Source: an uncultured Actinomycetota bacterium (GTDB lineage Bacteria; Actinomycetota; Actinomycetes; Mycobacteriales; Micromonosporaceae). Taken from it: 64,000 nt of DNA. The notes beneath the pieces were generated by a model. The model saw only the letters and a list, made by a program, of their open reading frames with translations, was not told where the DNA came from and made no database searches. Positions within the stretch are counted from its first letter, which is position 1. Each line of letters opens with the position of its first letter. Of the stretch, positions 39,015-43,626 are shown one piece after another. The DNA lies in contig CAWDUX010000002.1 in the NCBI GenBank assembly GCA_963805605.1, forward strand, positions 119,672 through 183,671, given 5' to 3'. Made by a program: the position numbers and the translations under genes.

Positions 39015-39990
39015 TCATGTTGTGCGGTTGTGCTCGACGTGTAGGAGTACGAGGGCTGCCGCGGTGATCCTGCCGATGTTCCAGGGGCACAGACTGACGT
39101 TGCGCAGTGCTTTGAAAGTGGTCTTGAGTAGGGAGTTTCCGCGTTCACCGATGGCGCGGACGCTGTTGTGGGCTTTGTTGAACATCTGCTGCACGTCGGT
39201 GCAGGCACCGCCGCGCGGTTTCTTGAACGCGATCGTGATCGTGCCGGCCTCGCCTTCGTAGCCGAGGTCGGCGAGTACCCGCCGGCCCTCGTCGGTCCAG
39301 GCGGCCAGCAGGGGCAGGATGTCGTGTTCACGCAGAGCGGTCGTGTCGTGTTCCCGGCCGGGCCGGACCGGCGAGGTCCACAGCGGCCACCCGTCCGGAG
39401 CGGTCACGACCTGCACGTTGCCACCATGGTTGTCATGTTTGCCCGACCACCACAGGTCCACTCCCGGTGTCGGCCCCGGCGTGCGGCACCGATCGGTCTC
39501 GATCAGGGTTCCGTCGATGTTCACATGGGCGTAGCCGGCTATCTTCGCTGCCAGCAGCACCGATTCCAGTCGCGGCGCGTGGGCGGCGAGGACCCGGATG
39601 CCCTCGTGTAGGTAGTCATAGCCGGTCGACGAACTGACCTGGTTGTCCCCAGCCAACTGCTTGATCCGAGTGCCGTCGAGGAACCAGCGGATCACCAGGA
39701 CCGCCTGCTTGAAGCAGCCCAACGCACGGGTCCCGGTACGGGTCCCGAGCCGTTGCCGTTCAGCGCGCAGGAGCCCCGACAGGAACAACACGGTCTCCTC
39801 GCGCACCGACAATGTGGCCGTGTATGTGACACTCATAGCGACGCAGGACCCCTACTGAAGTTGATCTGTGAGAGGACCACTTCATACCGGGGTTCTGCGT
39901 CTTCTCGTTGCACCACCACGAGTTCCGGCGTGTCTACACCGACCACCACGACGGCCACCCGACGTACTCACACCGTTACGCGAAAGGTTC
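38979..39990 (-). mobile_element. IS5-family insertion sequence, 1012 bp
   Basis: Imperfect TIRs GAGCCTTTCCGCGTAACGG (38979-38997) and CCGTTACGCGAAAGGTTC (39973-39990); AAT on both flanks (38976-38978, 39991-39993). Confidence 0.9.
39015..39836 (-). CDS. IS5-family (DDE_Tnp_4/HARBI1-like) transposase
   Basis: IDGTLI, SGKH..HGGNVQV, PG..HD, LADLGYEG, R..GER...LLK motifs. Confidence 0.92.
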   Translation of the reverse strand: MSVTYTATLSVREETVLFLSGLLRAERQRLGTRTGTRALGCFKQAVLVIRWFLDGTRIKQLAGDNQVSSSTGYDYLHEGIRVLAAHAPRLESVLLAAKIAGYAHVNIDGTLIETDRCRTPGPTPGVDLWWSGKHDNHGGNVQVVTAPDGWPLWTSPVRPGREHDTTALREHDILPLLAAWTDEGRRVLADLGYEGEAGTITIAFKKPRGGACTDVQQMFNKAHNSVRAIGERGNSLLKTTFKALRNVSLCPWNIGRITAAALVLLHVEHNRTT

Positions 39991-40052
39991 AATGGGCAGC
40001 TCCGTGAATGACTTGGAGACGCCGCTTGCCCCGGATCAGGAACGGTACGGAT

Positions 40053-40292
40053 ATGGAATCGGACCTGCCCACAGTGAACGTGTGCCTGTGGAGAGCGGAC
40101 GCCATCGTCCTCTTCGACTGGCTCAACAGCATCGACCTGAACACCGTCCCGGTCACCCATCCTGCGCAGAAGCAGGCGCTCGCCGACCTGGCCTCACGGT
40201 TCGAGTGGGCAACTGATGTCGACCTCACCGAGGTCAGCGCCGAGGAAATCTCTCAGGCGCAGTCAGAGGTGGCACGCGGCATAGGCTGGTGA
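40053..40292 (+). CDS. Small acidic hypothetical protein
   Basis: 79-aa ORF with plausible codon usage. Confidence 0.6.
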   Translation: MESDLPTVNVCLWRADAIVLFDWLNSIDLNTVPVTHPAQKQALADLASRFEWATDVDLTEVSAEEISQAQSEVARGIGW

Positions 40293-40326
40293 GATCCCGG
40301 ACTGCAGCTGCGTACGGCGTGACTGC

Positions 40327-40907
40327 ATGGTGGTCGCAGCGGATACTGGCGCGGTGGCGAAGGACGAGGCGTTGCGACGATTGCGGACCGCTGCTGCCCT
40401 GTGTGCCATCGGGGATGCGCATGACGGAGCGGCTGTGGATGCCGCCTGTGCCGCTCTGATGGCGGGGTACGACGATCCCCAGCCGCGCATACGTGCTGGC
40501 GAGGCGCGCTCCCTCACCGTCAGCGAGTTGAATGACCTTCTGCCCGCGGCCTTGGCCGAGGTCGGACTCAGCTGCTACCCGGCGGGAAGCGATGCAGCAG
40601 CCGTGGCGCCGTCCAGGCCATGGCCGCAATGACGGTACGGGGCGAAATGAGCCCGGCAGCTCTGGCCTCCTGGGCGCATACCTGGATCGGCCACGACGGG
40701 CCGGAGCTGGCGCAAGAGCTTGTCGACCTGGACGACGTACACGACTCGTTGGAGCACTGCTCGATGACTGAGACCGACTTCCAGACCGCGGTACTCGTAG
40801 CGGCGCGACGTGTCGAGGTCGCCCCGGAGCCGTCATGCAGTGACGGCCAGTGGCCCGGACTGCGAGCTGTGCGCGCATTCGCGCAATCCGAGCTCGGTCG
40901 GCGGTGA
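40327..40907 (+). pseudogene. Hypothetical helical (immunity-like) protein split by a -1 frameshift near 40605
   Basis: DAAAVA joins AVQAMAAMTVRGEMSP if one base is added, giving 194 codons. Confidence 0.55.
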
Positions 40908-40952: not shown

Positions 40953-41660
40953 ATGGTCGAAGTGCGGAAGAGGTTACGGGAGCTACATGTCGCTGGCCGG
41001 AGCTTTGTCTGGAAGGCTGAGATCCTCCATGTGCCAGCCGAAGGCGACTGCCATCGGTGTATCCGGGTGCGGGTATGGGGAAGCGGAAAGAACAGTCAGG
41101 CGCTGCAGGCTGACCTGTTGTCGACGAGTTGGGACTCGCACTGGGGTGCGTGCGCAACCGATGGCACCTACCCCTCGTCGGGCGATGTGCGGGCGCTCAT
41201 CGTGTACGCCGTTGCCCATGGTTGGGAGCCTGATCGTGTGGGCGGCACATTCCTGCTGAGCGAGCGCGACCACGCTTTCGAGTTGGCCAACTTCCTGATC
41301 ACCGACCGCCTCCACGACCCCACGGCGCCGGATCCCACCGCGCGCGTCCAACGTCGGTTTGTTGCGCGGATGCGGCTCCGGGTGGATGCGGAGTGCGTCT
41401 ATGCCGACGACCAGTACTGGGGTCGTCGGGAGATGCCGCGCGATCAGGTCGTGCGCATCGTCGTGGGTGGTTCCGTGTGGCGCGTCGAAGCCCGGGACGG
41501 TTCGATTCTGCGTCTGGTCACGCCACAGGAAAGTGCCCCAGCCGGTAAGGAAACCGATGCTGACCGCAGCATTCACGAAGCTGGGTCGCTGCCTGCTTCC
41601 GGCGATCCATTCAATGGCTGTAACCGCGGCAAAGACCAGCAAGATCCCCACGAAGCCTAG
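40953..41660 (+). CDS. Hypothetical protein, possibly chimeric after ~41360
   Basis: GGGAGG RBS; first ~135 aa look like a coherent domain; the tail overlaps a minus-strand hydrophobic ORF (41720 downward). Confidence 0.5.
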   Translation: MVEVRKRLRELHVAGRSFVWKAEILHVPAEGDCHRCIRVRVWGSGKNSQALQADLLSTSWDSHWGACATDGTYPSSGDVRALIVYAVAHGWEPDRVGGTFLLSERDHAFELANFLITDRLHDPTAPDPTARVQRRFVARMRLRVDAECVYADDQYWGRREMPRDQVVRIVVGGSVWRVEARDGSILRLVTPQESAPAGKETDADRSIHEAGSLPASGDPFNGCNRGKDQQDPHEA

Positions 41661-41787: not shown

Positions 41788-42285
41788 CTATGGTTGCAGA
41801 CATCCGAGACCTAGCCGCTCGGCGAACTGGGTGAAGGTCGGCGTGACGATGCGCCTAGCGCATTGCCGTGGGTTGGTCCAGAAGTCGCTGGCCACGACCC
41901 GGGGGTCGGTCGGGCTCGTGCGGTAGTCCAGCGCAACCGCGACGTCATCGCCTGGGTCGCGATTGACTGCGATGAGGAGAGCCTGCTCGATGTCCAACCA
42001 CGGCAGCTCGACAGGATGCGTGACACGGCTGCCGCGGACTTCACGGAAGAAGCGTGCTGAGGGTGCGTCATCGGCGACCATCTCCAGTGGGGTGCTCGCG
42101 TCACGGATCTGGTCCAGGCCGGACAAGAAGATGAGCGGATCTTCAAACCAGGGCATGACTACATGTAGCGCACTGTCATCCGGTTTACGCCAGAGACCCG
42201 CCCGCAGCTGGTGAACCAGGAGTTCGGGCAGCCGCAGACCTCGGACGGTCCAGTCCTGGCGGTCATGGTCCTGGCCGCCGGCCAT
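41788..42285 (-). CDS. SMI1/KNR4-like putative immunity protein
   Basis: LRLPELL N-terminus; VALDYRTSPTDPRVV; TFTQFAERLGL C-terminus. Confidence 0.55.
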   Translation of the reverse strand: MAGGQDHDRQDWTVRGLRLPELLVHQLRAGLWRKPDDSALHVVMPWFEDPLIFLSGLDQIRDASTPLEMVADDAPSARFFREVRGSRVTHPVELPWLDIEQALLIAVNRDPGDDVAVALDYRTSPTDPRVVASDFWTNPRQCARRIVTPTFTQFAERLGLGCLQP

Positions 42286-42385
42286 GTGTCCTCGTTCTTC
42301 CATGCTGCGCATGGTGCCCGAGCCTCTCTCATCGGTTAAGCAGGATCCCACCTGCCTTTTCGCTTACTGCGGACCCATCCGATAC

Positions 42386-42457
42386 AAGATCAACTAAGTC
42401 GTCATCGCGAAGGAGGCCAGATCGGGGAGTGTCCTGACCTGGCCTTGTGGTGTGGAG
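42386..42457. repeat. Degenerate copy of the tRNA-Gly 3' end plus downstream hairpin (att-like scar)
   Basis: Shares exact AAGATCAACTAAG, the hairpin and terminal TGTGGAG with 43297-43371. Confidence 0.75.
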
Positions 42458-42505
42458 GGCACACCGTAATGGCCGCTAATGGCCTAACAGGCCTAGCATC
42501 TCGAT

Positions 42506-42838
42506 ATGCGGATGCCGTGGCAATGGTCGCCATCCGACGACCCGGTGCGTGACCTGCTCGATGCGTTGGACGAGCTGGTGGAGCTGCTTCGTACGCACGA
42601 TGAGAGGCACTGGGCGGACTGGATGGAGACCGCCCGCCGCGACTTGGCCACGGGTGATCTGGCAGCGGCGAGGCATGTGCAGGCCGCCTTCGGAGGGATG
42701 GGCAGCATCAACGACGTGACCTGGATGCCCAACGAGGGAGAGTCACCGCACGAGGTCTACCTGCTCTTCGAGGTCATTTCCCGGCGGGTGGCTGGATGTG
42801 CTGGGAGGGTGTCCGCGGCTACAGGCCCACAGCGTTAG
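42506..42838 (+). CDS. DUF6966-like small helical protein (immunity-like)
   Basis: L.ELVELLR..DERHWADW and AFGGMGSINDV motifs. Confidence 0.6.
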   Translation: MRMPWQWSPSDDPVRDLLDALDELVELLRTHDERHWADWMETARRDLATGDLAAARHVQAAFGGMGSINDVTWMPNEGESPHEVYLLFEVISRRVAGCAGRVSAATGPQR

Positions 42839-42908
42839 CTCTTCCCGCCCATCTCAGAGCAGGAGGCCCCCGCTGGAGGCATGTCGGTGCCGGCTGGCAA
42901 CGGGGCCA

Positions 42909-43229
42909 CTATCGGTGAGGAAAAACGCCGAGTCGTACGTGGCCGCGTCCATCGTGCCGGGCATCGAGTTCGAGTTCGTCGTAGAGCGACCGCCAACCTC
43001 GGGCCCCCTCCCACCCACGCCAGTCAGCCGCTAAGGACGTGGCGAACTCAGGAAGAGACCCTTCACTGCTGAACCGGGCATGGACCGCAGCGTTGGTGGA
43101 CGCGCGCATCGTGTCGTCGTCCAGCTCCGTTGCCGCGAAGTAGATGTCTCCGCCGCCGTCGGGGTCGGCGAGAGGGTGGATGGTCCAGCGGGGGCCACCA
43201 GTGGCGCGCAGGACGAACGACTCGGTCAT
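42909..43229 (-). CDS. DUF6228-like protein, possibly C-terminally truncated
   Basis: F..LAADWRGWEGARGWRSL..EL.L.ARHDGRGHVRL pattern. Confidence 0.6.
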   Translation of the reverse strand: MTESFVLRATGGPRWTIHPLADPDGGGDIYFAATELDDDTMRASTNAAVHARFSSEGSLPEFATSLAADWRGWEGARGWRSLYDELELDARHDGRGHVRLGVFPHR

Positions 43230-43323
43230 GGCAGTGACCGTATTCGGCAACGCCGAACAAGCCCTGCCCATGGCGCCTGCAAGGTAGTGGCCCACGAAGA
43301 TCAACTAAGGCGGTGCTCATGAG

Positions 43324-43361
43324 AAAGCCCAGGTCGGGGAAATGCCCCTGACCTGGGCTTT
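43324..43361 (-). terminator. Hairpin downstream of tRNA-Gly
   Basis: AAAGCCCAGGTC...GACCTGGGCTTT stem with T-tract on the minus strand. Confidence 0.75.
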
Positions 43362-43366
43362 CGTTG

Positions 43367-43440
43367 TGGAGCGGGTGACGGGAATCGAACCCGCACCATC
43401 AGCTTGGAAGGCTGAGGCTCTACCATTGAGCTACACCCGC
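43367..43440 (-). tRNA. tRNA-Gly (TCC)
   Basis: Reverse complement GCGGGTGTAGCTCAATGGTAGAGC...TTCCAAG...GGTTCGATTCC...CCGCTCCA folds as a cloverleaf with encoded CCA. Confidence 0.97.
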
Positions 43441-43549: not shown

Positions 43550-43626
43550 CGGGGTGTAGCGCAGCTTGGTAGCGCACTCGCTTTGGGAGCGAGGGGCCGT
43601 GGGTTCAAATCCCGCCACCCCGACCA
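43550..43626 (+). tRNA. tRNA-Pro (TGG)
   Basis: CGGGGTGTAGCGCAGCTTGGTAGC...CTCGC TTTGGGA GCGAG...GGTTCAAATCC...CCCCGACCA. Confidence 0.97.

Follow-up and report, generated by a model that had tools for sequence, protein, structure and literature searches.

The repeat beside tRNA-Gly(TCC)

The window, i.e., the whole stretch of 64,000 nucleotides of DNA that was analysed, contains a tRNA-Gly(TCC) gene behind which a direct repeat of ~75 nt encloses two small accessory genes. The features of this locus are as follows:

39015-39836, minus strand: DDE_Tnp_4 transposase (Pfam; IS, IS5/Harbinger-like) in the left part of a low-GC island
42386-42398, minus strand: distal 13-mer (motif search and arm alignment)
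42414-42445, minus strand: distal hairpin (module D), -20.7 kcal/mol, z -3.5
42451-42457, minus strand: distal CTCCA(CA), read as all that is left of an earlier partial copy of tRNA-Gly, whose remaining ~40 nt of core are missing
42468-42483, minus strand: paired motif GCCATT-AGCG-GCCATT, 9 nt from the distal CTCCA, read as a far-arm (P-arm) remnant
42506-42838, plus strand: DUF6966 gene, accessory and rare in the family (Pfam PF22294, E 9.9e-16)
42909-43229, minus strand: DUF6228 gene, accessory, with alternative starts at 43271 and 43304 (Pfam PF19739, E 5.8e-16)
43255-43296, minus strand: putative degenerate arm-type pair and residue of an integrase 3' end (alignment A5)
43297-43309, minus strand: proximal 13-mer, CTTAGTTGATCTT on the tRNA strand (motif search and arm alignment)
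43323-43362, minus strand: proximal hairpin (module T), terminator-like, directly after the tRNA, -33.1 kcal/mol, z -6.1
43367-43440, minus strand: tRNA-Gly(TCC), the presumed integration target (ARAGORN; Rfam tRNA 75.8 bits)
43550-43626, plus strand: tRNA-Pro(TGG) (ARAGORN)

The two copies of the repeat are located at 42386-42457 (distal, copy D) and 43297-43371 (proximal, copy T), and each is composed of a 13-mer that is exactly shared, a hairpin whose stem differs between the copies by a compensatory G:C/C:G swap, and the CTCCA tail of the tRNA; together these are referred to below as the module. Because tRNA-Gly(TCC) occupies 43367-43440 on the minus strand, the TGTGGAG at 43365-43371 and at 42451-42457 reads as the complement of the CTCCA end of the tRNA plus two flank bases. 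In the pairwise alignment the edges of the repeat are sharp, with the 13-mer at one side and TGTGGAG at the other. The copies are ~76% identical and their longest exact run is 13 nt. The 13-mer, AAGATCAACTAAG, is found at exactly two sites in the window (42386 and 43297), also when up to two mismatches are allowed, while 0.09 matches are expected by chance and two sites occurred in 0 of 100 shuffles. When copy D is used as a query against the whole genome, the proximal copy is retrieved with E=1e-4 at 76% identity. An independent short-read metagenome contig covers 39953-43394 with zero differences and the duplication is, therefore, not an assembly artefact; a large protein word-index search gave three matches, which yielded only the short-read contig of this same locus. 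The initial annotation, made from the sequence of the window, had described a duplication of the 13-mer, the hairpin and the tRNA end that brackets ~840 bp with two small genes, and all of these features are indeed present, the genes being those for the DUF6966 and DUF6228 proteins.

Hairpin structure and distribution of the module

The swap between the two hairpins (AGGCCAG/CTGGCCT versus AGCCCAG/CTGGGCT) is a true compensatory pair, as had been proposed. Over 15 related copies the swapped pair is GC in 7, CG in 6 and UA in 1, and double compensatory changes occur in 5 of the 13 hairpin pairs (15 copies, alignment A4). The outer stem covaries in this way, whereas CCAGGTCA/GACCTGG, which forms the inner stem, hardly varies over the 15 copies; its invariant sequence could point to recognition by a protein besides a role in structure. 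An intrinsic terminator would be a stable G+C-rich stem-loop with a U-run behind it; here the stem is stable and covaries, but the U-run is short and interrupted (CUUUCUCA). In related genomes the hairpin of module T is part of an arm that is carried by integrative elements, and the hairpins behind the two tRNA copies of one element are homologous, not identical. The hairpin may have been retained because a stem-loop follows, and probably terminates, tRNA-Gly, with every element carrying its own copy.

The assembly in which the module was searched (G000; 5.9 Mb in 8 contigs, 93% complete) holds three copies, found with copy D as the query, and no more were retrieved with a profile of these three. 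The third copy, which was overlooked in the initial annotation, lies at G000:C2:1925536-1925619 (matched by copy D over 1925540-1925613), directly after tRNA-Gly(CCC), the 3' end of which is identical to that of tRNA-Gly(TCC). Since there are only three copies and all are linked to tRNA-Gly, a generic terminator repeat was rejected and the module is specific to tRNA-Gly 3' flanks; of the 11 matches to motif plus hairpin in the genus, 8 are likewise situated at tRNA-Gly flanks. The scattering of the motif over the whole genome, which the initial annotation had named as the result that would speak against it, is thus not what was found.

Gene content of the island

The interval lies within an island (~38.9-43.3 kb) with a GC content of 62-66%, compared to 70-73% in its flanks. 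The island is strain-variable and synteny with two relatives (G002 and G005) breaks at it. Short-read contigs break at the edge of the transposase (~39940-39953), and the small open reading frames at 41788-42351 (minus strand), 40953-41660 (plus strand) and 40008-40907 (plus strand) lack Pfam matches (E<=0.01) and have a low GC3. A search for integrase, rep or tra fragments in the 39-43.3 kb region by tblastn, with the proteins of two intact elements discussed below (in G004 and G001), gave no match, and no match to PF00589 is present near the tRNA in the window. With no integrase, RepSA or Tra in the island, the window contains at most a remnant of an AICE and not an AICE. Towards its left end the island showed no additional att remnant.

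The two enclosed genes have different distributions. DUF6966 is present in 6 of 151 genomes of the family and DUF6228 in 51 of 401. In the loci examined they never occur together, nor beside AICE genes, and homologues of either are absent from the intact elements of G001 and G004. The idea that they are a conserved mobile pair, or cargo of intact elements, hence receives no support from these loci and elements. In two other genomes a DUF6228 gene is found directly downstream of a tRNA-Gly, in the same orientation and with no att scars, i.e., in G007 (TCC; L024 14968-15282) and in G142 (CCC; L044 1463-1722). A general linkage of DUF6228 to tRNA-Gly was considered and rejected: it concerns 3 of ~60 matches, two of them from a single locus of one genus, and all 30 further DUF6228 loci lie away from tRNA-Gly. 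The pair may be either leftover cargo or old host neighbours that became trapped between scars; the scar-free DUF6228 gene after tRNA-Gly(TCC) in G007 means that the two genes may be host neighbours and that the order of events is uncertain.

Integrative elements at tRNA-Gly in related genomes

Seven genomes of the same genus, which we infer to be Actinocatenispora (Micromonosporaceae), were searched with the locus. In this genus both tRNA-Gly(TCC) and tRNA-Gly(CCC) are hot spots of integration, occupied by intact pSAM2-type AICEs of 14-15 kb, and a clearly virgin site was not found among these genomes. Partial copies of tRNA-Gly are present at 1.2-15 kb from the intact tRNA-Gly(TCC) or (CCC) in G001, G002, G003, G004 and G007; mostly they start in the anticodon loop, and a degenerate copy in G007 starts from ~position 43. 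An unpublished genome, G031, enters only the tally of the locus search and supports none of the conclusions. Immediately beside the intact tRNA a PF00589 integrase is encoded in G001 (TCC locus) and in G004 (CCC locus), and these two elements also encode RepSA (PF20199, E ~1e-93), an FtsK/SpoIIIE protein (FtsK-like Tra) and a GntR regulator. Despite the different isoacceptors that are targeted, the integrases of G001 and G004 are 76% identical (L019, L025); the 3' halves of tRNA-Gly(CCC) and tRNA-Gly(TCC) are the same except for one base, at the anticodon. The integrase family adjoins tRNA-Gly in ~38 of 48 loci, which span Micromonospora, Actinoplanes and Plantactinospora (Micromonosporaceae) as well as Kribbella, Frankia, Actinosynnema and several MAGs.

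A second AICE subfamily was also observed at tRNA-Gly(CCC), in L026 (G002:C6 1-6600), with a frameshifted integrase of ~40% identity and a different arm pair, CGTGCCCG-NN-GCGTGCCCG (GTGCCCG type). The arm pair of this second subfamily is also found downstream of the G004 element (L019 18340-18400), which indicates a probable tandem accretion of different AICE subfamilies.

The arms of the intact elements have a regular anatomy. On the side of the tRNA the order is tRNA, hairpin, TAGTTGATCTT(G), a pair CGTGCCATTA-(C/G)-CGTGCCATTA and the stop codon of the convergent integrase; the paired GTGCCATTA motif, TAGTTGATCTT and the hairpin thus make up the integrase-proximal arm, which is followed by the genes for RepSA, the FtsK-like Tra and the GntR regulator. 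The far side has, in this order, another pair (CGTGCCATT-NN-CGTGCCATT), ~100 nt, GTTGATC(T/G)TGGTGCG and the 45-nt 3' half of the tRNA; an GTGCCATT pair thus precedes, at a distance of ~100 nt, the partial tRNA copy of 45 nt, which begins in the anticodon loop. In an intact element the two repeats are exactly identical only over this 45-nt block, from the anticodon loop to CTCCA. Strand exchange would be expected within the block, which we take to be the exchange site by analogy with pSAM2. The integrase-bearing elements conserve the core of the 13-mer, TAGTTGATCTT, in their integrase-proximal arm, between the hairpin and the arm repeats, so that a role as a protein-binding site is possible. 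The initial annotation had suggested the 13-mer as an arm site of a recombinase; the paired GTGCCATTA repeats, which are present in both arms, seem better candidates for arm sites than the 13-mer.

Integrase genes beside tRNA-Gly in these genomes range from complete to absent:

G004 and G001: integrase intact
G003 (CCC locus): integrase aa 167-411, fused to a truncated repSA
G003:C23: integrase of ~100 aa
G002:C6: integrase frameshifted
G007 (CCC locus): last 39 codons of the integrase
G000 (both tRNA-Gly loci): no integrase

At the CCC locus of G003 (L020 6381-8498) an integrase gene minus its first 166 codons abuts a repSA gene minus its C-terminal part. This is, by its gene structure, a decaying AICE and would be a clear example of internal deletion. 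In G003:C23 a partial tRNA copy is followed by another arm and the 100-aa integrase fragment, an explicit tandem remnant. The CCC locus of G007 has an interval of 1.25 kb, from the intact tRNA and its module to a degenerate T-arm plus a copy of the module, and the architecture of this remnant is that of our window. The window would then be the next step down in this series of integrase decay.

The CCC locus of G000 itself was also inspected. The region G000:C2:1925432-1925640 (L004 1432-1640) contains tRNA-Gly(CCC) and, behind it, the same hairpin and TAGTTGATCTTG together with the arm-type pair GTGCCAT-GAGC-GTGCCAC, but no integrase. With this arm-type pair, the flank likewise appears to be an element scar, and it is read here as a second AICE scar in the same genome.

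Comparison of the locus with the element arms

The repeats of the window and their flanks are homologous to the arms of the integrase-bearing elements and one of the repeats abuts the 3' end of the tRNA. Copy T aligns over its full length with the integrase-proximal arm and the similarity ends at ~43255 (alignment A5). The stretch 43255-43296 aligns with two features of G004, G003 and G007, the GTGCCATTA-CC-GTGCCATTA pair and the region around the integrase stop; in the window the pair is degenerate (CGTGGGCCAC-TACC-TTGCA) and ~20 nt correspond to the 3' end of the integrase. By blastn, homology with G005 ends near 43261. An integrase 3' remnant that had been read by eye in the flank of G005 was dropped, as tblastn gives it no support.

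The identity block, i.e., the 3' half of the tRNA, is not present in both repeats of the window, as the distal one keeps CTCCA alone. Beside this distal CTCCA lies the single occurrence of GCCATT-N2-5-GCCATT in the 5.9-Mb genome, and in ~130 kb of the loci of relatives the same pattern is found in element arms only. We infer that the GCCATT pair is a far arm that was fused by a deletion to the last bases of a partial tRNA copy. This far-arm assignment is based on a motif of ~20-28 nt; a complete far-arm profile run against the genome gave no significant match at the distal site, and MAFFT also aligns the site, equally briefly, to another, GGCC-rich part of the far arm. On the other side of the distal CTCCA, hairpin D and the downstream TAGTTGATCTTGT resemble the integrase-proximal arm, with faint traces of arm repeats. 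The distal 13-mer and hairpin D may accordingly be the integrase-proximal arm of an older element, or flank that predates the last integration.

Origin of the repeats

These comparisons make it quite likely, in our opinion, that the repeats are the worn footprint of pSAM2-type AICEs at tRNA-Gly, which accreted in tandem and then decayed by deletion. Copy T (43255-43371) would be the integrase-proximal arm left by an element that has lost its integrase through deletion, and copy D with the GCCATT pair (42386-42483) would be the far junction of that same element, where a deletion would have removed the rest of the arm together with ~40 nt of the tRNA core, in all ~130 nt if the GCCATT pair represents the arm-type pair. 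The distal 13-mer and hairpin D would be flank that predates this integration. This flank itself looks like an arm left by an even older element, so that tandem accretion is implied. The two enclosed genes would then be remaining cargo or genes that were caught between the scars. As the crossover core is lost and the assembly contains no cognate integrase (the best match to the family is truncated, 31-34% identical and located at 809 kb of C2), the structure would be immobile under this explanation. The module could also be partly host flank rather than element arm.

An explanation that dispenses with an element at the distal site is that copy D is a local duplication, or the product of ectopic gene conversion, of the 3' flank of a tRNA-Gly and that the GCCATT pair is coincidental. 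Copy D indeed matches the tRNA-Gly(CCC) flank (80% identity, E 4e-10) better than it matches the proximal copy, with 76% and E 1e-4, and the evidence for a far arm is short. However, copy D starts exactly at CTCCA, the only GCCATT pair of the genome lies 9 nt away and this motif is otherwise confined to arms. Furthermore, the CCC locus of G007 shows the same architecture with clearer remnants, and the CCC flank in G000 that would serve as the donor itself appears, by its arm-type pair, to be an element scar. We, therefore, regard this alternative as rather unlikely.

The initial annotation proposed site-specific integration at tRNA-Gly of a very small unit without an integrase. The first half of this proposal stands in so far as the repeats appear to be att-derived; the second half does not fit the relatives, where the units measure 14-15 kb and carry their own integrase. 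It was further suggested that such cassettes accrete stepwise with an integrase acting in trans, and accretion does seem a fair description of the locus, although the distal copy has no core and a cognate integrase is missing. In its fullest form, this would make the interval a functional, integrase-less, CIME-like mini-cassette, with T and D recombined by an integrase in trans or by an incoming AICE, leading to stepwise accretion and mobilisation. Att-derived direct repeats do flank an interval that contains neither integrase nor transfer genes, as in a CIME, DUF6228 adjoins tRNA-Gly in three genomes, and for Streptomyces it has been suggested that AICE remnants, though decayed, may be mobilised in cis (PMC9513070). 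However, the distal copy is devoid of the 45-nt identity block that is common to the repeats of intact elements and is consequently an unlikely recombination partner. With ~76% identity and a longest exact match of 13 nt, homologous recombination between T and D is also unlikely. The integrase of the AICE family is absent from the assembly, and no joint or deleted form across the interval was found in the contigs of four soil-metagenome runs, which would miss rare forms. The gene pair is not conserved elsewhere either, and tRNA-Gly adjoins 0 of the 30 further DUF6228 loci. Taken together, a functional cassette seems very improbable.

A variant of this proposal holds that T and D are recognised by a tRNA-Gly-specific AICE integrase through the CCAGGTCA/GACCTGG stem and TAGTTGATCTT, and not through the anticodon-loop core, which would turn the 0.9-kb DUF6228-DUF6966 unit into a minimal cassette that can be mobilised in cis or in trans. 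We give this little credence; if it were true, the position of DUF6228 after tRNA-Gly in G000, G007 and G142 would reflect mini-cassette traffic. Finally, the distal copy keeps CTCCA and a terminator-like hairpin, which could be the tail and the terminator of another tRNA-Gly gene in tandem, with a decayed body, but this was rejected as highly implausible: the 70 nt upstream of the distal CTCCA give no tRNA signal even at E<=10 and match an element arm motif instead, and no tandem tRNA-Gly(TCC) exists at the locus in the seven relatives of the genus and four more distant genomes (L007-L017).

Relation to known systems and implications

Accretion and decay of AICEs at tRNA genes are known from Streptomyces. 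Te Poele et al. (2008; PMC2440964) described tandem AICE integration into a regenerated tRNA, with an att site of ~44 bp between the elements, in S. avermitilis, and listed AICE remnants for S. coelicolor and Salinispora. The classical pSAM2-type gene set described there matches the integrase, RepSA, FtsK-like Tra and GntR of the relatives. Choufa et al. (2022; PMC9513070) reported successive AICEs at one tRNA site in natural Streptomyces populations and their decay by deletion to small traces flanked by direct repeats, and raised the possibility that leftovers are mobilised in cis. In this AICE literature (PMC2440964, PMC9513070) we found no description of tRNA-Gly (TCC, CCC) as a target in Actinocatenispora.

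The elements of the relatives agree with pSAM2-type AICEs in that the 3' half of a tRNA is targeted, direct repeats flank the element, and RepSA, Tra, a KorSA-like GntR regulator and, adjoining the tRNA, a tyrosine integrase are encoded. The window is different: it has no integrase, rep or tra, its distal core is lost, and only the apparent arm scars and two accessory genes are left. Its similarity to the decay in Streptomyces (PMC9513070) is close, with successive elements at one tRNA site and small repeat-flanked traces, but genus and tRNA are different here and the distal site of the window is without the identity block, so that mobilisation in cis is unlikely.

Streptococcal CIMEs (ICESt1/ICESt3-type) are similar to the window in being a segment without integrase and transfer genes, with att-derived repeats next to the target and an origin from an integrative element. 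CIMEs, however, retain two functional att sites, whereas in the window one site is without its core and no helper element is present. The CIME concept would cover the mechanism that was initially proposed, and the window appears to fall short of it by not having two functional att sites.

The window is a new instance of a known process, as AICE accretion and decay have already been described in Streptomyces. What looked like a mini-cassette would be an ordinary decayed integration scar for which no new mechanism is needed, and a false lead is thereby cleared. As a by-product, the comparison shows how the att arms are built in a widespread AICE integrase family that is specific for tRNA-Gly, with a hairpin, TAGTTGATCTT and paired GTGCCATTA motifs in both arms. 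It also provides a clear decay series within one genus that could aid the annotation of tiny AICE remnants that escape gene-based detectors.
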